64,000 bases of DNA, from NCBI GenBank assembly GCA_016218045.1, contig JACRFB010000010.1, positions 8,101 through 72,100 on the forward strand, written 5' to 3'. Made by a program: the position numbers and the translations under genes. The notes beneath the pieces were generated by a model that did no database searches, was not told the origin of the DNA, and saw only the letters and a list, made by a program, of their open reading frames with translations. The stretch's first letter is position 1; the number at the start of each line of letters is the position of its first letter. Positions 741-9,374 of the stretch are shown here, one piece after another. This DNA is from Ignavibacteriota bacterium (GTDB taxonomy: Bacteria > Bacteroidota > Ignavibacteria > SZUA-365).

Positions 741-1433
741 TTGACGGATCCGCCGACTCAGTCACGAGACATAGGGGGGCACATGGAAGAGCGCGGCGTA
801 CAGGATCCTTTCGATTTCGAGGACAGGATGGCGCACAGAGCCGGACCGGCAGCGGAGGATGCGGCTCAACGGCAGGACGAGACCGCCAACACACAGGACG
901 AGACCCCCAACACACAGGACGAGACCCCCAACACACACGAAGGGGCAGTCAACACCCACGACGAGGGCTTCCACACGCACGACGGGACTCGCGCCGCACA
1001 CGACGAAGCCGTCAACACGCACGACGAGGCCGGGGTGAACTCGGAGGCCCTCTGGGATGACGATGAGGAAATCGACGCGGAACTGCAGGCCATGATCGAT
1101 CACGATCTCGCGATTCTGGATCGAGAGTGGGCGGAAGGCAGGGCATTCCTCGACCTGGAAGGACATTCGGGAGGACATTGTCCGTTCTGTGACATGATGG
1201 GAAAAAAGAGCGAGACATCCGGTTTTATCGGCGGGATCTTCGACGATGACGGGAACCGCGTCGATCCGGCGTCCATACCGATGCCCGGAATCTGCATCAT
1301 GTGCAAGACCTACGACACGGATAGCTGGGGCGAGGAGATCCTGTGCATGCTCACGCGCTACGACGCCATGCACGACGATGAGGAGTTCCGCTGCAGCGGC
1401 TTCTCGCCGAAGTTCGGCGGACGACTTCCGTGA
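741..1433 (+). CDS. Acidic hypothetical protein with tandem heptad repeats (QDETxNT / NTHDE) and a Cys-rich C-terminal module (CPFC...CIMC...C..RC); an alternative start is at 783 (MEERG)
   Basis: ORF of 230 aa with internal 21-bp repeats. The C-terminal region carries four CxxC-like cysteine pairs, a possible zinc ribbon. No recognisable family. Confidence 0.45.
   Translation: MTDPPTQSRDIGGHMEERGVQDPFDFEDRMAHRAGPAAEDAAQRQDETANTQDETPNTQDETPNTHEGAVNTHDEGFHTHDGTRAAHDEAVNTHDEAGVNSEALWDDDEEIDAELQAMIDHDLAILDREWAEGRAFLDLEGHSGGHCPFCDMMGKKSETSGFIGGIFDDDGNRVDPASIPMPGICIMCKTYDTDSWGEEILCMLTRYDAMHDDEEFRCSGFSPKFGGRLP
873..935 (+). repeat. Perfect/near-perfect 21-bp tandem repeat x3 (caggacgagacc[g/c]ccaacaca) inside the 741-1433 CDS, followed by degenerate copies up to about 1030
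   Basis: Read directly: units at 873-893, 894-914 and 915-935. They encode QDETANT/QDETPNT/QDETPNT. Confidence 0.8.
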
Positions 1434-1439
1434 GCGGAG

Positions 1440-2276
1440 TCAGGACTCGCGGAACTCGAACGGCGCCGTATCGTCCGGTCGGGGCACGTCCGCCCAGTGA
1501 CCCGACGGATCCGATCCCCTGCACACGATGCTGTGCCGATTCCAGTCCCAGTACGCGCGCACCGACGGTGGACAGTAACGGAGCGTGAGACCGCAACGGC
1601 GCCTGTCCGACATGTTCGCACGCGATCCATGCACCAACAGATCGGAGTGAATGGAAATCTCTCCCGAGCGAAGCTGCACATCCTCGGGTTCGCCATAGTC
1701 CGCGATCGCATCGATGGCCTGTGTGAGGACGTTGTCTTCGTCTGGAGCCGTCTCGCGCCAGGGCAGATGGCCATGCAGATGCGAACCGGGCAGCACCCTC
1801 ATGCAGCCGTTGTCCGTATCAACATCATCGATCGCGAGCCACACGGTGACCGTCCGCGACGGTGTCAACGCCCAATACGAGCAGTCCTGATGCCAGGCGA
1901 CTTCGCGCGGATCACCGGGCAGTTTGCAGAAAAAGTGTGTGGCCCAGCAGATCACATCCGGTCCGATGAGGTCCGAAACAACATCGACGATGCGGGGATG
2001 TGTCGCGCAGTCGTGTATCATCGCGATACGGTCCTGATACCGGTCGATCGCATAGCTGTTGCGGCCGCTGCGCAGAAACGTTTCGAGAAGTTGATCAAAG
2101 CGTGTCCGCACATCCCGCATCTCGGATTCATTCAACGCGGGGAGACCCGCGAGGAAGCCGCGCTCATTGAAGCGATCCACGTCGGCGGCGCTCAGCACGC
2201 GGCCGTCCGCGGGATGTGCCGGGAAAAACCGCAGATCCCTCTCCAGAGCCGACACACGTCTGTCGTGTTCAGCCAT
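1440..2276 (-). CDS. PhyH-family (phytanoyl-CoA dioxygenase-like) Fe(II)/2-oxoglutarate-dependent oxygenase
   Basis: HxD...H facial triad context (WHQDCSYWAL ... MRVLPGSHLHGH). The start is taken at the internal ATG 2276 (MAEHDRR), which overlaps the upstream gene's stop by 8 nt (ATGGCTGA). The track ORF extends to 2411. Confidence 0.65.
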   Translation of the reverse strand: MAEHDRRVSALERDLRFFPAHPADGRVLSAADVDRFNERGFLAGLPALNESEMRDVRTRFDQLLETFLRSGRNSYAIDRYQDRIAMIHDCATHPRIVDVVSDLIGPDVICWATHFFCKLPGDPREVAWHQDCSYWALTPSRTVTVWLAIDDVDTDNGCMRVLPGSHLHGHLPWRETAPDEDNVLTQAIDAIADYGEPEDVQLRSGEISIHSDLLVHGSRANMSDRRRCGLTLRYCPPSVRAYWDWNRHSIVCRGSDPSGHWADVPRPDDTAPFEFRES

Positions 2277-3441
2277 GCCCGTGTCCATCGTACACGCAGG
2301 CGCGCGCCTCGTCGGCGAAGGCCCGCAGCAGGCGCGCTTCGGCGTGGAAGAAGTGATCGGACGGCGAGAGGATGTATGCCCCGTTTCCCCCTGCCTGTTG
2401 AAAGCAGGCACGCACCGCAGCCCGAGTTTCCTCCTCCGTGCATCCGGCGAAGTGGCGGTTCTGGTTGAAGCCCCCGATCATGCATGCGCGGCCGTCGATC
2501 CGCGACGCGGCTTCGGCCAGATCCACATCACCACCCATCTCTTCCGGTGTGAAGGTTTCTATCGCATCCGGCTTCATGGCCAGCACGAGGTCGAGCACCG
2601 GCATGATGCCGCCGCAGATGTGGTACACCACGCGTTGCCCCGCTTCATGCATGGCTTCGATGAGAGGCGCATCGTAGGGCGCGACAAACTCCTCGAAAAT
2701 TGCGGGCGAGATAACCGTGGCCGACGCGTCGCCGCCGCCAAGTTCGATCAGGTCGTATGGCGCGCCCTTCAGCGAACGTATCCAGCCGAGTTTTCGCCGC
2801 TGGAGGACTGCAAGGAATTCGTGCACCCAGACCGGGTCGTCGTAGGTCGCGAGAATCAGTTCCTCGATGCCGTATAACACCGCTGCATCCTGCCAGCAGC
2901 CCGGCTGTCCGTACACTTCAAAACCGGGGACGGCACCACGAAGCAGCGCATCTCCACGCCGCTCGCGCGCATACTGCCGTAGTTCCTCGACATCACAGCG
3001 CAACGCGGGCGCATGGCGGGCGAGCACGTCGATATCACGGCGAAGGCGTAGAGGACGTTCCGTCACCCAGGTGGTGTGCCTGTCGCTCTGCAGGACTGTG
3101 CGCAACGCGCCGCCGGGTGTCTCCACAACAACGGAGACCGTCGTATAGCGGTCGTGCGCGAGCGGCGTCTCGGTGATACGCCACGAATCGGAAAGGACAC
3201 GCCTCGCGGCGTAGGGGCCGGGATCGTGCGCTGGATCGAGGATTTCTCCATGATCCGCATCGGGCGAAAAAGCCGCGTGCCAGCGAACCGGATCGAGACC
3301 TGTCTCGCGCCAGAATCCATCTTCGTCGCGACCGCCTTCAAAGTCCGCAAGAAACGATGGCATGAGATGATGCGTCGTGGCGGGGAGCCGGTCGGGCGCC
3401 TTGCAATCGAGTGCCATGAGCAAGCGTTCACGCGAGGTCAT
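2269..3441 (-). CDS. Uroporphyrinogen-decarboxylase (URO-D) family zinc methyltransferase, MtaA/MtbA/CmuA-like (corrinoid:thiol or methyl-ether methyltransferase type)
   Basis: N-terminus RERLLMALDCKAPDRLP and overall URO-D-like architecture. Putative Zn ligands HxC (VVYHICGG) plus a downstream Cys (RACMIGG), as in MtaA rather than true HemE. ATGA start/stop overlap with the upstream gene at 3438-3441. Confidence 0.7.
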   Translation of the reverse strand: MTSRERLLMALDCKAPDRLPATTHHLMPSFLADFEGGRDEDGFWRETGLDPVRWHAAFSPDADHGEILDPAHDPGPYAARRVLSDSWRITETPLAHDRYTTVSVVVETPGGALRTVLQSDRHTTWVTERPLRLRRDIDVLARHAPALRCDVEELRQYARERRGDALLRGAVPGFEVYGQPGCWQDAAVLYGIEELILATYDDPVWVHEFLAVLQRRKLGWIRSLKGAPYDLIELGGGDASATVISPAIFEEFVAPYDAPLIEAMHEAGQRVVYHICGGIMPVLDLVLAMKPDAIETFTPEEMGGDVDLAEAASRIDGRACMIGGFNQNRHFAGCTEEETRAAVRACFQQAGGNGAYILSPSDHFFHAEARLLRAFADEARACVYDGHGHG

Positions 3442-4193
3442 ATCCGGTCTCCGCTGCTTTCCGCCTCATCCGTGGAGGGCGTGGATTCGACGCGGTACAT
3501 GCAGTCGAACGAGTCGCAGTCCGCACAGCCGTGCGGCAAAGACACCACGCCGGATCCCAGGCCGATGATGCCGGAGACCGATTTGATCGGTGACATCATC
3601 GACGACTCCGACAGCCGCACTCCGCAGTGTGCCCCCGCGAGCAGATCAAAAAGGACTCGTTGATCCGATACGGACCAGCCGCAATATCCGGGGCTGTAGC
3701 GGTTGGACGTCCCGCACTCCCGTCGCAGCGCTTCTTCCCGGACCATCTCATGCAGGGCGGCCGCGCACGCTTCCGCGAACACGGAGCCAACGGCGTCGAG
3801 AAGAAAGTGATCGAAGGGATCATGAGCGTGTGTTGTATTCTCGAGGGCCTCCTGAAACGCCGCGCCCGTGGTGGCAAGGAATACCGCGAGTTCGACGGCG
3901 CCTTCGAGCTGTGAGGTGATGCGGGGGCCGCAGGCGAATTCCTTTTCGTGGAGACCCACAATGCCCTGCATCGTGTTGATACGCGCGAGCGGCAGCACAC
4001 GCACCGCGGCGCGGGCGTTGCGGCCGAGGCCGTCGAGCCGCGCGCAGTGAGCATCGATGCCCTCGCGGATCACGTCGGGTGCGCCGCCCTCCGCGTATCC
4101 GAGTCGTCTTTCGACCTTTCCGTGTGTCACTACGTCGGCAACGCCCTGCGGGAAGAGGACGTGCACATCAAACTGCCGCGCCTCGCGGATCAT
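3438..4193 (-). CDS. Stand-alone methionine synthase (MetH) activation/reactivation domain protein (Met_synt_B12-like)
   Basis: About 250 aa protein. I attribute its similarity to the MetH C-terminal AdoMet-binding reactivation domain from sequence memory only (region ...RYSPGYCGWSVSDQRVLFDLL...). The start is taken at ATG 4193 (MIREARQ), which forms an ATGA overlap with the corrinoid-protein stop. The track ORF extends to 4217. Confidence 0.55.
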   Translation of the reverse strand: MIREARQFDVHVLFPQGVADVVTHGKVERRLGYAEGGAPDVIREGIDAHCARLDGLGRNARAAVRVLPLARINTMQGIVGLHEKEFACGPRITSQLEGAVELAVFLATTGAAFQEALENTTHAHDPFDHFLLDAVGSVFAEACAAALHEMVREEALRRECGTSNRYSPGYCGWSVSDQRVLFDLLAGAHCGVRLSESSMMSPIKSVSGIIGLGSGVVSLPHGCADCDSFDCMYRVESTPSTDEAESSGDRI

Positions 4194-4882
4194 ACCTCCG
4201 CCACAGGCGCGATACACGCGCGGAGAAAGTCGACGGCGCTCTGCGGATCCGCGCCATAGGCATCCGCGCCGATGGAGGCGGCGAAGGCGGCGGTCACGGG
4301 CGCTCCGCCGACGATGACGGGTGTGTTCGGAACCGCGGCGTGCACGGCGTCGACAACCTCGCGCATGTGCAGCATGGTGGTTGTGAGCAACGCGCTGACA
4401 CCGACGGCGCAGCCGGGATGCGCGCGCGCCGCTTCGGCAAAGGTCTCGGGCGGCACATCGGTTCCGAGATCGACCACCTCGTATCCCGCCCCGGTTGCAA
4501 TCATGGCGACGAGCTTTTTACCGATGTCGTGCAGGTCGCCGCGGACCGTCCCGATGACAAAGGTGCCGCGCTGCAGAATGTCGTGGGCGCGGAAGTGCGG
4601 TTCGAGATGCGCCATACCCGCGGCCATGGCGCGGGCGGCCAACAGCACGTCGGGCACAAAAACGCGTTTGTCGCGAAACAGCTCTCCGATGCGCGCCATG
4701 CCGGGAATCAATCCCTCGTCGAGCACACGCTGCGGCGGGATGGCGTGTGCCTCGAGCGCGCGCCTCGTCAATTCGTCGGCCCCGTCCTGCCCGCGCAAAT
4801 CGGGCGGATGTGGTGAGGCGGCGTCGCGTTTCCCGCGTTCAACGCATAGTGCAAGGGCTTCGAGAAGTTGCCTGTCGTCCAT
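4190..4882 (-). CDS. Corrinoid (cobalamin-binding) protein, MtaC/MtbC-like: N-terminal helical cap plus a Rossmann-like B12-binding domain
   Basis: DxHxxG B12-binding signature GDLHDIGKKLV, followed by G-rich Rossmann segments (AMIATGAGYEVVDLG, VGVSALLTTT). The start is probably ATG 4882 (MDDRQLLEAL); the track ORF runs to 4912. Confidence 0.7.
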   Translation of the reverse strand: MDDRQLLEALALCVERGKRDAASPHPPDLRGQDGADELTRRALEAHAIPPQRVLDEGLIPGMARIGELFRDKRVFVPDVLLAARAMAAGMAHLEPHFRAHDILQRGTFVIGTVRGDLHDIGKKLVAMIATGAGYEVVDLGTDVPPETFAEAARAHPGCAVGVSALLTTTMLHMREVVDAVHAAVPNTPVIVGGAPVTAAFAASIGADAYGADPQSAVDFLRACIAPVAEV

Positions 4883-4942
4883 GAGAAAAAAGATACTGCG
4901 CGCACGGTTCATTTGGGAATCATCCGTCGCGGTATCCTGGCG

Positions 4943-4974
4943 CGAAAAAAACAGCGCCTCATGGATGAGGCGCT
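4943..4974 (-). terminator. Rho-independent terminator downstream of ftsZ (end of the dcw transcription unit)
   Basis: On the minus strand: hairpin agcgcctcat-cc-atgaggcgct (4953-4974) followed by GTTTTTTTCGCG (A-run 4943-4951 on plus), 40 nt after the ftsZ stop. Confidence 0.6.
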
Positions 4975-5013
4975 TGGAGGATCTTCGGGGGGAGTTGGAT
5001 GGAGGGTGTGTGC

Positions 5014-6204
5014 CTAATCCATGATCCTCCTGAGGAAAGGAGCTTTTTCGCGTTCAACGCGCTGATGCTGCTGCGTATCGTGTTCCGCCTCGCTCTCATC
5101 CTCGACGGGCCGCGGGTACTTGCGGATGTATGCCGGAGGATCGAGGTCCTTGAGTTCGGTCAGTCCCGAAGGGATGTGCAGGGGACGCGCGGCCGCCATG
5201 GGTTTCGCGGCGGGCATGGTCGGACGCCGGCCTCCCACATGACGCTGATTGAAGCCGGTTGCGATGACGGTCACCATCATCTGATCGCCGAGAGTTTCGT
5301 CGAGGACCGCGCCGAAGATCACGTTCGCCTCTTCGCCCGCCGCCTCGGTGATGATGTTGCCGGCTTCCTCGAGCTGCACGATCGACATCTCGGAACCGCC
5401 GGTGAAGTTGATGAGCACGCCGCGTGCGCCGGCGATGGTGACACCCTCGAGCAGCGGGTGTGAAATGGCGTTGTGCGCGGCTTCGACGGCGCAGTTCTCG
5501 CCGCTCGCGATGCCGCTGCCCATGAGCGCGTCGCCCATGTCCTTCATGATGGTTTTCACATCGGCAAAATCGACATTGACGATGCCGCGCTTCGAGATGA
5601 TGTCGGCGATGCCGCGTGTGGCGTTGAAGAGGACCTGATTCGACATGCGGAACGCGTCCGGCACCGACGTGGCCTTTTCCACAAGCGACATCAGCTTCTG
5701 ATTCGGGATCACGATGAGCGTATCGACGTGTTTGCGCAATTCCTCGATTCCCTCTTCGGCCTGCGCCATACGGCGCTTGCCTTCGAAATGGAAGGGTTTG
5801 GACACGATGCCCACAACGAGCGATCCGAGGCCTTTGGCGATGTTTGCCACAACCGGGGCTCCGCCCGTTCCCGTGCCGCCTCCCATGCCCGCGGTGATAA
5901 AGACCATGTCGCTGCCACTGAGGGCCGCGGTGATCTCTTCCTTGTCTTCCTCGATCGCGCGATACCCCACGGAGGGATCGGCGCCCGCGCCCAGACCGCG
6001 CGTGAGGTTTTTCCCGGCCTGGATCTTGTACTGCGCGCCGCTCGAATCCAGCGCCTGGTTGTCGGTGTTGATCGCGATGAACTCGACTGCGTCGAGACCA
6101 CGCGCGATCATGTCGTCCACTGCATTTCCTCCGGCACCGCCCACACCGACGACACGGATTTTCGCCCGGTCGCTGGTCTGCTTGTCCAGCATGATTGGAT
6201 ACAT
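5014..6204 (-). CDS. ftsZ: Cell division GTPase FtsZ
   Basis: Tubulin signature GGGTGTG, N-terminal IRVVGVGGAGGNAV, Pro/Gln-rich C-terminal linker and conserved C-terminal peptide. AGGAGG SD lies 7-13 nt upstream. Confidence 0.95.
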   Translation of the reverse strand: MYPIMLDKQTSDRAKIRVVGVGGAGGNAVDDMIARGLDAVEFIAINTDNQALDSSGAQYKIQAGKNLTRGLGAGADPSVGYRAIEEDKEEITAALSGSDMVFITAGMGGGTGTGGAPVVANIAKGLGSLVVGIVSKPFHFEGKRRMAQAEEGIEELRKHVDTLIVIPNQKLMSLVEKATSVPDAFRMSNQVLFNATRGIADIISKRGIVNVDFADVKTIMKDMGDALMGSGIASGENCAVEAAHNAISHPLLEGVTIAGARGVLINFTGGSEMSIVQLEEAGNIITEAAGEEANVIFGAVLDETLGDQMMVTVIATGFNQRHVGGRRPTMPAAKPMAAARPLHIPSGLTELKDLDPPAYIRKYPRPVEDESEAEHDTQQHQRVEREKAPFLRRIMD

Positions 6205-6293
6205 GATACCCTCCTCAGAGTGTGACTGTGTGGTGATGATGTGTTCTTCTGTATTGCTTCACTGTTTGCTTGGAACCTTGGGAATGAGAGCCG

Positions 6294-7560
6294 TTAGAAT
6301 TGCTCTGTGAACCAGTCGCGCACACGCTCCCACAAGCCGAGAGGCGAGCGGGTGCTGCGCGCCGTGTCGCCGCCCGACTGCACGCCGTAATTGCGGAAAC
6401 CGTGCAGGACGAGGCCGACGCAGGTGCTGTACATCGGATTTTCGGCTTCGGAGACAAGTCCGCCCGAGAAGCCGTTGGGAATGCCGATTTTTACCGGCAT
6501 GCCGAGCACTTCGCGCGCGAGCGCGGCGGTGCCCTTGATGAGGGATCCGCCTCCGGTAAGAACCACGCCCGAGTGCAGATGTTTGGAATAGCCGGACCGC
6601 TTGATTTCGAGAGCCACGATTTCGAGGATCTCCTCCATGCGGGGCTGAATGATCTGGCAGAGGAGACTCCGGCTGATCTCCATCGGTTTGCGTCCGCCTA
6701 TCCCGCGCAGCAGGATGGGCGAATCGTGCACGATCTCGGGCAGGTAGGCGTACCCGTGCTCGCGCTTCAGTTTCTCGGCATCCTCGTTCAGAATGCCAAG
6801 CACCTTGCGGATGTCCTCGGTCACCTTCTTCCCCGCGATCGCGAGCACCGCCGTGTGGCGGATCGTTCTATCTTCGAACACGGCGATGTCGGTGGTGCCG
6901 CCGCCGATATCGACGAGCACTATTCCGACTTCCTTCTCTTCATTGTCCAAAACTGCATAGCTCGATGCGAGCGGTTCGAGGATGAGATCGTTGACCTCGA
7001 AGCCGGCCCGCTCCACGCATTTGTAGATGTTCTGCACGGCGGTGATGCTGCCGGTGATGATGTGCACGTTTCCTTCCATGCGCACGCCCGAGATGCCGAC
7101 GGGATCGTAGATGCCGTCCTGACCGTCGACGATGAATTCCTGCGGGATGACATGGATGATTTTCCTGTCCTGGGGAAGATTGACGCGCTTTGTATCCTGG
7201 ATGAGCCGGTCGACGTCCTTGCGTGTGATTTCGTTGTCGGGATTGCTGATGGCGATGACACCCCGGCTCTGGAAGCTCTGGATATGGTCTCCCGCGACGC
7301 CGACATTGACGGCGCGCACCTTGATGCCCGACTGCACTTCGGCGTTTTGCACGGCCTGTTGTATGGAATAGACGGTCTTGTCTATGTGCGTCACGGTGCC
7401 GCGCGCCATGCCTTCGTTCTCGGCTTTCCCGATCCCCATCACGTTGATGCGGCCATCGGGATCCATCGCGGCGATGATGCAGCACACCTTGGTCGTGCCT
7501 ATGTCGAGGCCGACAACAATGCGCTCCGCCGCGCTTCCGTTCTGGTGTTTACCTTTCATG
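6294..7560 (-). CDS. ftsA: Cell division protein FtsA (actin-like ATPase)
   Basis: IVVGLDIGTTKVCCIIA phosphate-1 motif, VLTGGGS adenosine motif. The start is taken at ATG 7560 (MKGKHQ); the 494-aa track ORF has a spurious 73-aa N-terminal extension overlapping ftsQ. Confidence 0.9.
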
Positions 7561-7569
7561 GATGGCCCG

Positions 7570-8436
7570 TCAATCTTTCTGGATATTTGTTGTGTCGATC
7601 GTGTTGGCAACCGGTCGTGGCGCAGGCCCCTGGCCGGGTGTCCAGCGCACAACCACCTGATCCTTGAAACGCAGGTCGACATATTCGAGTCCGCGGACGT
7701 CATGCTGCAGCGCGAGGTTTTGCCAATAGGCGCGGAAGACGCGCATTGCGCGCGCGACATCGGCGGTCGGATCCACAAGCACGGGCACGCCCGCCTCGAG
7801 TGTGAAAAGGATCACGTCGGTTTTTCCATCGAGGGACGCCTCGGAGAATAAGTGCAGCGCCTCGGGATCATCGAGACGCGCGCGGCGGAGCACATCGAGC
7901 ACCTGGCGCAGTCGGGCGTTTTTCACACGGACACCGGCAGCAAATCCACCAATTCCCTGCGCGCCGGTGATGACGGGGAGGGCATGCATCGGGACGGATG
8001 CCACGGACGGAAGCAGGTAGCCGTCCTCGTCGATAAGCCAGTCGCGTCCACCGACGTTGAGTACAACGGCGATCGGAGCGCGCTCATGAATCTCGATCTC
8101 GAGCGTGGAAGGCGGATTCCGTCGCAGTATCGCCTCACGCACGACAGGATTTGCCTCGATGCGTTTTTTCACCGCCATGAGGTCGATGTCGGCGAGCACG
8201 GTGGTGTCGGGCACGCGCGCGCGCCGCAGAATCTCCTCGGGACTCAACAGGTGCGTGCCGGTGACGACGGCGGTCACCTTCACCGCGTTGTTCATCCAGT
8301 GATTCGCCGCGAGCGAGAGCGATGTCACGAATCCCACGATGGCAAGCAGGGAGAGTCCGACAGGCGAAATGCGCCGTCTGCGTCGAGGCATCGGTGTCAC
8401 CTCGTCGGGAGGTGTGGAAGTCCGTTTGAGTCTCAT
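7570..8436 (-). CDS. ftsQ: Cell division protein FtsQ/DivIB (bitopic, POTRA domain)
   Basis: Basic N-terminus, single TM (ISPVGLSLLAIVGFVTSLSLAA), POTRA-like region. The start is taken at ATG 8436 (MRLKRTS), which forms an ATGA overlap with the murB stop. Confidence 0.75.
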   Translation of the reverse strand: MRLKRTSTPPDEVTPMPRRRRRISPVGLSLLAIVGFVTSLSLAANHWMNNAVKVTAVVTGTHLLSPEEILRRARVPDTTVLADIDLMAVKKRIEANPVVREAILRRNPPSTLEIEIHERAPIAVVLNVGGRDWLIDEDGYLLPSVASVPMHALPVITGAQGIGGFAAGVRVKNARLRQVLDVLRRARLDDPEALHLFSEASLDGKTDVILFTLEAGVPVLVDPTADVARAMRVFRAYWQNLALQHDVRGLEYVDLRFKDQVVVRWTPGQGPAPRPVANTIDTTNIQKD

Positions 8437-9374
8437 CGGGCAACCTCCGCACGGGGATCGGCAAGGGGTGCTATGGCATCGGAGCCGAATCCGACCAGGA
8501 GCACTTCGAGTTCGAGCGCAACACCTGTGTGCCGATACACGGTCCGTCGCACATGATTGATAACCGCGAGAATATCCGCTGCCGTTGCCGAGGGGGATCC
8601 CACGATAAAATTGGCGTGAAGAGTCGACACCGTCGCGCCTCCGAAGGTGTATCCCTTCAGACCGCACTGCTCGATGAGCCGCGCGGCATACTGCCCTTCA
8701 GGATTTTTAAAGATGCTGCCGGCATTCGGGAGGTTCGTCGGCTGGGCGGCATTGCGTGTGAGAAGGAGTTCCTTGCGGCGCTTCTTCATGTCCTCGGTGT
8801 CGCCTTCCGGCAGGGCGAAACGCGCGGACAGCACCACGGCATCACGCAGACCGGAATGGCGGTATCGGAAATCACACTCGTCCTTGCGCAGCGTCACCAC
8901 GTCGTCGCCGCGGACGACGGTGACGTCGAGGAGATGGTCCGAAATTTCCGCGCCGTACGCACCGGCGTTCATGATCAGGCCGCCGCCAAGAGTGCCGGGA
9001 ATGCCCGCGAGCGGATCGGTACCGGCAAACCCGCGCAGGATGCAGAAGTCCACAAAGGCCGAGAGGCGCGCGCCCGCGCCCGCCGTCACAATTCCTTCTT
9101 CGATGCTGACACCGGAGAATCCGGCTTCGAGATTGATGACCGCGCCGGAATAGCCGTCGTCGTGAATGAGCACGTTGCTTCCGTTGCCGAGCACCATGTA
9201 GCGGATGTCATTGCGACGGAAATAGGTGATCAGGGCGAGCACCTCGTCGGTACGCATCGGCTCCACATACAGATCGGCGGCGCCGCCGATGCGGAATGTG
9301 GTGAGGCGCGCGAGCGGTTCCCCGATCGCGATGCGCCCGCTGCAGATACCCCGTATGTGCTCGAGTGAGATCAC
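8433..9374 (-). CDS. murB: UDP-N-acetylenolpyruvoylglucosamine reductase MurB
   Basis: FAD-binding N-terminal motif LARLTTFRIGGAADLYVEP..., MurB C-terminal domain. The start is taken as GTG 9374, which forms a GTGA overlap with the murC stop; the M-initiated track ORF runs to 9716 but the conserved domain begins before its first internal ATG. Confidence 0.8.
   Translation of the reverse strand: MISLEHIRGICSGRIAIGEPLARLTTFRIGGAADLYVEPMRTDEVLALITYFRRNDIRYMVLGNGSNVLIHDDGYSGAVINLEAGFSGVSIEEGIVTAGAGARLSAFVDFCILRGFAGTDPLAGIPGTLGGGLIMNAGAYGAEISDHLLDVTVVRGDDVVTLRKDECDFRYRHSGLRDAVVLSARFALPEGDTEDMKKRRKELLLTRNAAQPTNLPNAGSIFKNPEGQYAARLIEQCGLKGYTFGGATVSTLHANFIVGSPSATAADILAVINHVRRTVYRHTGVALELEVLLVGFGSDAIAPLADPRAEVAR

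Follow-up and report, generated by a model that had tools for sequence, protein, structure and literature searches.

A predicted corrinoid methyl-transfer operon with a MetH-type activation protein and an accessory PhyH-family dioxygenase in an Ignavibacteriota bacterium

The four-gene operon and its proteins

The 64-kb stretch of Ignavibacteriota DNA analyzed here, called the window as a whole, carries a compact minus-strand operon downstream of ftsZ. Its four genes encode a corrinoid protein, a MetH-type activation protein, a protein of the uroporphyrinogen decarboxylase (URO-D)/MtaA fold, here named UROD-A, and a PhyH-family Fe(II)/2-oxoglutarate dioxygenase, here PhyH (Table 1). Here and below, functions are assigned to the four proteins by genomic inference. 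On this basis, the operon probably encodes a B12-dependent methyl-transfer module with MetH-type repair, to which PhyH has been added as an accessory.

Table 1. Genes and terminator at the operon locus
Feature	Position	Strand	Remarks
Corrinoid protein gene	4190..4882	-	230 aa; alternative ATG at 4912 gives 240 aa
MetH-type activation protein gene	3438..4193	-	251 aa
UROD-A (URO-D/MtaA-fold) gene	2269..3441	-	390 aa
PhyH-family Fe(II)/2-oxoglutarate dioxygenase gene	1440..2276	-	278 aa
Intrinsic terminator after ftsZ	4953..4974	-	9-bp GC-rich stem, 4-nt loop, T7 tail
ftsZ	6204-5014	-	stop codon TAG

Gene calls were read directly off the minus strand. The stop codon of the corrinoid gene, TGA (4192-4190), shares bases with the ATG of the activation gene (4193-4191), forming ATGA at 4193-4190. 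The same ATGA joins the activation gene to UROD-A (3441-3438). At the third junction, ATGGCTGA (2276-2269), the PhyH start and the UROD-A stop overlap by 8 nucleotides (nt). The start codons at 4882, 4193, 3441, and 2276 match the start points of orthologues, and an independent assembly (Logan SRR12113407) has the same order of ftsZ and the four genes. A consensus terminator scan places a hairpin 40 nt past the ftsZ stop, with a predicted RNA fold of -22.3 kcal/mol (z = -3.2) that none of 200 shuffles equals. This terminator separates the division and cell wall (dcw) cluster from the four-gene operon. At the other end, a convergent plus-strand open reading frame (ORF; 741-1433) ends 6 nt from the end of the PhyH gene, and the unit therefore consists of exactly four genes. 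A preliminary description of this DNA had proposed four overlapping minus-strand genes (4882-1440) placed after the ftsZ terminator, and direct reading together with the significant hairpin bears out both points. The domains it named (PF02310/PF02607, PF02965, PF01208, and PF05721) all pass curated Pfam cut-offs. None of the four proteins falls in a named NCBIfam equivalog.

Rfam at gathering threshold gave no riboswitch match in the window and nine related loci, so a B12 or S-adenosylmethionine (AdoMet, SAM) riboswitch cannot serve as functional evidence. No sigma-70 promoter turned up in a scan of 1200-5200, a negative that carries no information in this bacterial group.

The corrinoid protein, scanned over 4190-4912, matches PF02310 with 90.7 bits and PF02607 with 68.5 bits, both above cut-off. 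It has a B12-binding cap and a Rossmann domain, and the DxHxxG motif recognized earlier (GDLHDIG) is indeed present, along with SxL and GG. The best NCBIfam matches, MtgC and "methyltransferase cognate corrinoid protein", both lie below cut-off. The nearest solved chains are 1y80 (E 3e-46) and 7xcn, a trimethylamine corrinoid protein, followed by MetH. By its motifs the window carrier is predicted to be a complete His-on corrinoid protein. In the Ignavibacteria genome that is the closest relative (L001/L005, 6621-7264), the match to the corrinoid gene is split into overlapping segments (6621-7073 and 7064-7264) in a stretch that the public gene call leaves blank; the split reflects either a frameshift or a long-read assembly error.

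The activation protein scores 58.6 bits against PF02965 (cut-off 25), and the match covers only profile positions 123-246 of 273. Its N-terminal ~90 residues have no detectable similarity, and its total size equals that of the stand-alone Thermotoga maritima protein TM0269. It aligns both to Escherichia coli MetH (1msk) and to TM0269 (1j6r), including the RxxxGY motif for AdoMet, where NRYSPGY lies opposite IRPAPGY of E. coli MetH. RxxxGY is conserved in 21 of 21 family members. Four cysteines, in PGYC and a C-terminal CxxCxxxxC (window 3438-3560), are also invariant in the 21 aligned proteins. The MetH domain lacks this Cys4 set, and alignment lengths indicate that 1j6r is too short for the C-terminal tail. 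Electrons might enter through a metal or iron-sulfur site built by these four residues. The operon holds no ATP-dependent RamA/RACE activase; the PF02965 protein stands in its place, and its gene is translationally coupled to that of a methylotroph-type corrinoid protein. A tblastn search finds no MetH within the 64-kb window. The preliminary description had taken 3438-4193 for a Met_synt_B12 domain, a MetH-type AdoMet module acting in trans instead of RACE, and the PF02965 match, the RxxxGY motif, and the lack of RamA/RACE in the operon agree with it.

UROD-A matches PF01208 (59.3 bits, cut-off 23.9) and scores far below the cut-offs of the NCBIfam models of MtaA/CmuA type (TIGR01463, 39.5 versus 235.4 bits; NF040654, 44.1 versus 400). 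Its AlphaFold model has a mean predicted local distance difference test score (pLDDT) of 89. The top Foldseek matches are the MtaA structures 4ay8/4ay7, at template-modeling (TM) scores of 0.61-0.72. Against 4ay8 the TM scores are 0.64/0.72 and the structural-alignment identity is ~13%. Uroporphyrinogen decarboxylases come next, then MetE (TM 0.41-0.51). A family profile run against the PDB has MtaA as its sole match (E 7e-6), with YHTCGG aligned to LHICGN.

The zinc ligands of MtaA are a His-x-Cys and a further Cys downstream. The preliminary description had assigned both to the window protein, as YHICGG and RACMIGG, and conservation agrees with the former only. H274 and C276, the His-x-Cys of YHICGG, are invariant in 20 orthologues and align to the His-x-Cys of MtaA. 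C320 of RACMIGG gives way to Thr, Ser, or Val in 4 of the 20 and is therefore unlikely to bind zinc or another metal. To judge from conservation, the invariant D362, H363, and C382 are possible substitute ligands. C149, C182, and an N-terminal T-T-H-H motif (residues 22-25) are invariant as well. In the model, a five-stranded beta insertion (~82-128) makes UROD-A ~50 residues longer than MtaA. The proposed role of UROD-A is that of a substrate:corrinoid methyltransferase. It is the only methyltransferase candidate in the operon, as described earlier, with no second one within 64 kb.

PhyH matches PF05721 with 106.4 bits (cut-off 22). The HxD...H triad reported for it is well founded, because H129-Q-D131, H216, and R225-227 are invariant across 16 orthologues. 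Structurally, its model (pLDDT 88.5) comes nearest to ThoJ, a peptide hydroxylase (6zyl; TM 0.74/0.79, 29% identity). SyrB2, CytC3, SnoK, and PHYH follow, and SnoN, which like SnoK modifies sugars, is also matched. In SyrB2-type halogenases, Ala or Gly replaces the carboxylate ligand (HxA/G). A halogenase of this type was considered for PhyH and rejected: the best NCBIfam match, TIGR01762 "chlorinating enzyme", reaches only 85.4 versus 226.3 bits, and HQD in 16 of 16 orthologues marks a hydroxylase-type enzyme.

A precedent for demethylation exists in the same Pfam family. Oxidative loss of the 2'-O-methyl group of free nucleosides, released as formaldehyde, was demonstrated for PF05721 enzymes by Stonkus et al. 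2025 (PMC12709175). The active enzymes are FJS, from a soil metagenome, its bacterial homologues, and human PHYHD1, while human PHYH is inactive. The study does not address the fate of 2-O-methylribose or any O2-independent route. Alignment to sequences taken from optically recognized text of its supplement, in which small errors are possible, gives the window PhyH 30% identity with human PHYHD1 (147 residues, E 1e-13) and 29% with FJS (142 residues, E 7e-11). Its similarity to either verified clade thus matches that between the two clades, for which identity is only 25% (E 1e-5). With such a distance between proven enzymes, 2'-O-methyl demethylase activity of the window PhyH is still conceivable.

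Two plus-strand ORFs lie beyond the operon. ORF 741-1433 (230 aa) contains a 21-nt tandem repeat (7.5 copies, 876-1032) that encodes acidic NTHDE/NTQDETP heptads; the C-terminal part beyond them is rich in Cys (CPFCD..., CIMCK...), and the product has no Pfam match. ORF 125-625 ends in a type IX secretion system (T9SS, Por) C-terminal sorting domain and shares 46% identity with the end of a secreted GH63-like protein of locus L063. Like the nearest homologue of the operon, this ORF suits a host of the Ignavibacteria/Bacteroidota type.

Recurrence of the genes in other genomes

Homologues of UROD-A are ~385 aa long and 52-64% identical to it. The family comprises at least 3,400 proteins in at least 585 species-representative genomes, from Ignavibacteriota, Bacteroidota, Acidobacteriota, Planctomycetota, Chloroflexota, Bacillota, Verrucomicrobiota, Gemmatimonadota, and KSB1. 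We surveyed 80 UROD-A genome loci with 8-kb flanks by tblastn and clustering of all ORFs. A corrinoid protein gene lies within 8 kb of UROD-A in 25 of the 80 genomes, across several phyla. The activation protein is found there in 20 of 80, always with the corrinoid protein. A cupin of the D-lyxose/D-mannose isomerase family (LyxI) is about as frequent as the carrier (26/80). Less frequent are a PfkB kinase (11/80), RbsD/FucU (6/80), a GFO/IDH/MocA oxidoreductase (4/80), and further URO-D paralogues of "B" type (5/80) and "C" type (7/80). A homocysteine S-methyltransferase (PF02574) is present in 5 of 80, in each case with the corrinoid protein.

The sugar genes are closely tied to UROD-A. Its start overlaps the LyxI stop by 4 nt in 6 of 18 measured junctions, and the two are at most 21 nt apart in 7 more. 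The LyxI cupin matches solved D-lyxose/D-mannose isomerases (7nzo, E 4e-75; another, E 5e-62). In NCBIfam, the PfkB neighbor exceeds the ribokinase equivalog cut-offs (374.8 versus 341 and 362.5 versus 299.65), and the RbsD neighbor exceeds that of D-ribose pyranase (128.7 versus 93). Transporters near UROD-A resemble XylFGH/Ggu and XylE. Glycosidases near it belong to glycoside hydrolase (GH) families GH2, GH3, GH20, GH31, GH38, and GH116 or are GH63-like or GH78-like. We looked for a single glycoside hydrolase family that would name a polysaccharide, and none dominates a Pfam tally of 69 large neighbor proteins, in which GH20, GH38, GH31, GH3, GH63-like, and GH78-like members occur once or twice each. 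No nucleoside hydrolase or phosphorylase gene was found among the cluster neighbors scanned.

The fuller clusters bring these genes together. In L086, L062, and L063, one strand carries, in order, the corrinoid and activation genes, PfkB, URO-D "B", the LyxI-like cupin, UROD-A, PhyH, RbsD, and GFO/IDH/MocA, and the other strand carries URO-D "C", PF02574, and a GH2-malectin protein. In L026 the order is corrinoid, activation, PF02574, RbsD, LyxI, UROD-A, two URO-D genes, and GH31, and a ribose-related ADP-ribosylglycohydrolase gene (PF03747, E 5e-46; 2890-4206) lies directly upstream of the corrinoid gene. The PF02574 neighbor (E 7e-70) is complete in L008, L026, L050, L054, and L063, with a partial match at the edge of L020. 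It also occurs in L086 and L169, and it was seen solely in loci with a corrinoid protein. Related loci thus have a second methyltransferase, in the form of the extra URO-D paralogues and PF02574. By predicted domain content, the fuller cluster has the homocysteine, B12 cap and binding (in a methylotroph-type carrier), and activation modules of MetH and lacks only the methyl-folate one; MtaA-fold proteins and pentose/hexose catabolic genes come in addition. UROD-A itself represents a widespread, highly conserved, and uncharacterized family tied to sugar catabolism, to B12, and in some genomes to homocysteine methylation. The several URO-D paralogues per cluster may mean several substrates.

PhyH is distributed differently. 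The closest relative, the Ignavibacteria genome L001/L005, has corrinoid, activation, and URO-D genes after ftsZ without PhyH, and L025 and L011, also among the closest syntenic relatives, likewise carry this trio, after ftsZ or plain, and no PhyH. All four window genes were detected within 8 kb in only one of the 80 genomes (L063), and in the metagenome contigs L086 and L091. The four-gene set, whose recurrence the preliminary description had proposed to check, is therefore not a conserved unit; what does recur is PhyH beside UROD-A. PhyH orthologues (52-65% identity) are present in 7 of 73 loci with enough downstream sequence, directly 3' of UROD-A on the same strand in 6 of these and on the opposite strand in L029. 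Counting metagenomic loci, PhyH lies directly downstream of UROD-A in L027, L034, L046, L062, L063, L066, L086, L088, and L090. In L007, a remnant of the last 38 PhyH codons (61% identity; 9187-9300) directly follows the UROD-A orthologue, a decayed copy that points to loss of PhyH in that lineage. In L091, a Fic/DOC-family gene with a helix-turn-helix domain (6436-7572) stands between UROD-A and PhyH of an otherwise complete cluster.

A second survey started from PhyH and covered 80 metagenomic loci. Of those with enough flanking sequence, the three that resemble the window PhyH most (L088, L090, and L091; 60-64% identity) have UROD-A nearby, directly upstream of PhyH in L088 and L090. None of the cluster genes is found in 76 loci at ~45-56% identity (L092-L167). 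Two of four homologues at 55-59% identity have URO-D genes (L086 and L087). The PhyH subclade tied to UROD-A thus sits inside a much larger, context-free family. The recurrent adjacency in 7 of 73 genomes, together with the closest metagenomic relatives, indicates that PhyH is not a chance neighbor; it is a recurrent accessory and not part of the core. Metagenomes from marine (TARA), freshwater, and soil samples abound in PhyH homologues at ~45-56% identity, with at least 588 matches.

The activation family also occurs outside UROD-A clusters. In L170 (Calditrichae, 3950-7726), genes for a corrinoid protein, an MtaB homologue, an activation protein, and a 338-aa URO-D protein stand in a row. 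The MtaB homologue scores 417 bits against the methanogen methanol methyltransferase, and the row has the appearance of a bacterial system for methanol methyl transfer that relies on MetH-style repair. In L169 (spirochaete, 1169-7643), the genes are URO-D, corrinoid protein, two heterodisulfide-reductase-like CCG/ferredoxin-domain proteins, activation protein, and PF02574. In L168 (Bacteroidales), the activation protein lies beside SusC/SusD without other cluster genes. A stand-alone activation protein, BT0249, is the partner of a split MetH in Bacteroides thetaiotaomicron (10.1101/741918).

A proposed demethylation route and its rivals

O-methyl sugars are common: RNA contains 2'-O-methyl ribose, and further examples come from the glycans of plants, algae, fungi, and bacteria. 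With the methyl ether in place, a sugar is barred from the usual isomerase and kinase reactions. A P450 removes the methyl group of 6-O-methyl-galactose in an O2-dependent reaction. In the searched literature, the enzymatic removal described likewise needs O2, as with the PF05721 dioxygenases acting on 2'-O-methyl nucleosides (PMC12709175). That literature contained no published description of this gene set, of a sugar/corrinoid demethylase, or of PF02965 proteins in clusters of this sort, and the earlier judgment that the combination is uncharacterized still holds.

We propose that the substrate is a small methylated compound, likeliest a sugar methyl ether, possibly a free pentose or hexose with an O-methyl group, or a nucleoside methylated on its sugar. 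The preliminary description had suggested an ether, amine, or thiol. The sugar-catabolic neighbors of the UROD-A family favor the ether and narrow it to a sugar methyl ether, leaving amine and thiol as a rival. A sugar substrate for the family is reasonably probable. A methyl ether would block aldose-ketose isomerization, which explains why a demethylase gene would be coupled to an isomerase gene. Within this class, ribokinase, ribose pyranase, and the PF05721 precedent would point to 2-O-methylribose.

In the O2-independent route, UROD-A would bind the substrate at its His/Cys metal site and hand the substrate methyl over to Co(I) on the corrinoid carrier, which would thereby become methyl-Co(III). 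The carrier would be unloaded by PF02574, which would move the methyl to homocysteine and form methionine; PF02574 is part of the cluster in some genomes and would be located elsewhere in the window genome. Homocysteine as the methyl sink is a tentative part of the proposal. Accidental Co(II) would be re-methylated by the activation protein with AdoMet and reduced flavodoxin or ferredoxin, as by the C-terminal domain of MetH; a metal or iron-sulfur cluster at the Cys4 site may assist this rescue. Repair of the MetH type functions in aerobes, and this would account for its presence here in place of the ATP-dependent RamA/RACE of strict anaerobes. In the O2-dependent route, PhyH would hydroxylate the same or a related substrate, likeliest at the O-methyl carbon, and the methyl would leave as formaldehyde. 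Like the homocysteine sink, this oxidative demethylase role for PhyH is offered with reserve.

Taken as one chain, from B12-dependent and O2-independent demethylation of a sugar methyl ether, through MetH-style repair and a homocysteine sink, to an O2-dependent route by PhyH, the proposal falls a little short of an even chance, and several observations weigh against it. The window has no sugar gene, and a tblastn search of its 64 kb finds no second URO-D, B12-domain, or PF02574 gene. None of the listed partners lies within 8 kb of UROD-A in 38 of 80 loci, so the family may also work in other settings. With the third MtaA zinc ligand not conserved, the metal site of UROD-A differs from that of MtaA. 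The sugar is ambiguous: ribokinase and ribose pyranase suggest ribose, whereas LyxI and GH38 alpha-mannosidases suggest lyxose or mannose. In five loci the corrinoid gene is immediately preceded, on its own strand, by the gene of an APC-family amino-acid permease. For PhyH, the window protein falls outside both verified demethylase clades, and PHYHD1 is not among its top 50 structural matches. No conserved neighbors were found for ~50%-identical PhyH homologues, with at most 6 of 78 loci sharing any. PhyH orthologues also occur without UROD-A (L085 and one further contig), in sugar-acid or glycoside-hydrolase surroundings. The permease loci (L003/L014, L031, L032, and L051) include both sugar-free clusters of Acidobacteriota and sugar-rich clusters of Ignavibacteriales, and the sugar model leaves them unexplained.

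Some of these observations also fit other explanations. PhyH could be functionally independent of an otherwise correctly described B12 module, appended in this lineage for another step such as sugar hydroxylation or epimerization, or for an unrelated metabolite. The nearest syntenic relatives without PhyH, the decayed copy in L007, the Fic gene in L091, and the solitary orthologues in glycan and sugar-acid loci are all as expected from such independence, as are the nearest structures: a peptide hydroxylase, halogenases, and the sugar-modifying SnoK/SnoN. However, in at least nine distinct loci with differing flanks PhyH adjoins UROD-A co-directionally, the two genes overlapping or standing ~16-170 nt apart; it is embedded between UROD-A and RbsD in L062, L063, and L086; and all three of the most similar metagenomic PhyH genes with enough flank have UROD-A nearby. 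We consider independence unlikely. A non-sugar substrate, such as a methylated thiol, amine, or amino-acid derivative (e.g. a methylthio compound) handled in the manner of MtsA/MtpA or the clostridial mlp systems, is somewhat less likely again. It would suit the His-x-Cys motif, typical of MtaA/MtsA enzymes that handle thiols or thioethers, the thiol-handling PF02574 partner, the upstream permease, and the lack of sugar genes around the minimal trio of Acidobacteriota and of the window. Kountz and Balskus (PMC10418091) propose methyl-sulfur or methyl-selenide roles for related clusters. It would not account for the tight LyxI/UROD-A coupling in 13 of 18 junctions, the isomerase in 26 of 80 genomes, or the ribokinase, ribose pyranase, and pentose transporter genes that lie co-directionally between the activation gene and UROD-A. 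One compound that might reconcile ribokinase, pyranase, and PF02574, 5-methylthioribose, was judged an unlikely substrate, since by chemical inference its demethylation would give 5-thioribose, with no 5-OH for ribokinase.

Two further alternatives retain the proteins and change the reaction. Methyl transfer could run in the reverse direction, with the activation protein as an AdoMet:corrinoid methyltransferase and UROD-A methylating a thiol or hydroxyl acceptor from Co(III). MtaA, the closest characterized relative, works in this direction, and the MetH activation domain methylates cobalamin from AdoMet. Reversal would also explain why there is a sole "classical" methyltransferase, and it fits the 338-aa URO-D of L170, which sits beside MtaB, a donor-side enzyme. 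The catabolic neighborhoods of transporters, isomerase, kinase, and glycosidases argue the other way. A B12 relay would be unnecessary given ordinary AdoMet methyltransferases, and the PF02574 partner is already an acceptor-side enzyme, which makes this direction improbable. Least probable of all is that the trio is a folate-independent methionine synthase, in which UROD-A would act like "core" MetE and methyl-corrinoid would be charged elsewhere. The common URO-D/MetE fold, MetE among the structural matches, the MetH-type activation protein, and the amino-acid permease near some loci are compatible with it. Yet MetE matches at TM 0.41-0.51 versus 0.64-0.72 for MtaA, Pfam gives no Meth_synt match, the separate PF02574 of fuller clusters would be redundant, and the coupling to sugar genes would be left unexplained.

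If sugar methyl ether demethylation by the corrinoid module is correct, it would explain how anaerobic or microaerobic glycan degraders handle O-methyl sugars and would tie sugar demethylation to methionine supply. It would imply a large added cobalamin demand in soils, peat, and sediments. It would also give a function to a conserved "uroporphyrinogen decarboxylase family protein" that is misnamed in hundreds of genomes. The MetH repair module would have been reused outside methionine synthase, as the MtaB cluster of L170 also suggests. A broader version is speculative and, as a whole, rather unlikely: a widespread B12 pathway, in at least 585 species, that would demethylate O-methyl sugars without O2 and feed methionine free of folate, with PhyH as an aerobic bypass in facultative organisms, to which the window's host would belong. 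Candidate substrates would then be 2-O-methylribose released as RNA is turned over, and glycan-derived methyl-mannose or methyl-lyxose.

Comparison with known systems

Among characterized systems, MtaABC shares with the window a separate His-on carrier of the MtaC/MttC/MtgC type and a URO-D-fold methyltransferase with His-x-Cys, for which MtaA is the best PDB match by both sequence and fold. UROD-A differs in being only ~13% identical, in its ~50-residue beta insertion, in its invariant TTHH, and in the unconserved third zinc Cys, and its scores against the NCBIfam MtaA/MtbA models all fall far short of the cut-offs. The window operon also lacks an MtaB-type partner and RamA, and its host is a non-methanogenic bacterium. 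The O-demethylases of acetogens and Desulfitobacterium resemble the proposed route in that a URO-D enzyme moves an ether methyl to Co(I) of a small corrinoid protein (PMC3727330, PMC10418091). Their substrates are aryl methyl ethers, while the context here is sugar-catabolic. Their second methyltransferase acts on tetrahydrofolate, where here the candidate is a homocysteine S-methyltransferase, and ATP-dependent RACE takes the place of the MetH-type AdoMet protein.

MetH and its split forms (BT0180 + BT0249; TM0268 + TM0269) provide the parallel for repair, with a stand-alone PF02965 protein containing RxxxGY, a kind of protein with earlier examples in this bacterial group (10.1101/741918, PMC5764234), and the homocysteine module PF02574 is present in related clusters. 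In contrast to MetH, there is no pterin (methyl-folate) module here, its place being taken by URO-D-fold proteins; the corrinoid protein is nearer to methylotroph-type carriers, and the activation protein has the extra Cys4. The type 1 mlp clusters (PMC10418091) are also widespread bacterial combinations of MtaA-like and corrinoid proteins without a folate methyltransferase. They are found mostly in obligately anaerobic Firmicutes, with sulfur or selenium substrates proposed (PMC10418091). Unlike the present operon, they have two or three Mlps with >25% identity to coenzyme M (CoM) methyltransferases, and RamA/RACE. Membership of the window operon in this group was considered and rejected, given its single URO-D gene with ~13% identity to MtaA, its lack of RamA, the sugar neighbors of its family, and its O2-dependent enzyme.

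For the oxidative route, the parallel is FJS/PHYHD1 (PMC12709175), which has the PF05721 domain, the HxD...H triad, and proven removal of a sugar O-methyl as formaldehyde. Identity to the window PhyH is 29-30% over ~140 residues, the window protein is structurally nearest to ThoJ, SyrB2, and SnoK, and the paper describes no association with B12 genes (PMC12709175). MtgBCD(E) of marine roseobacters (PMC12478193) is, like the system proposed here, a corrinoid methyltransferase system in aerobes. It differs in its donor enzyme, an MttB-family glycine betaine methyltransferase, and in its reactivation by RamA-like and DUF1638 proteins instead of PF02965. The roseobacters use a single corrinoid protein for substrate demethylation and, by way of a homocysteine module, for making methionine as well (PMC12478193).

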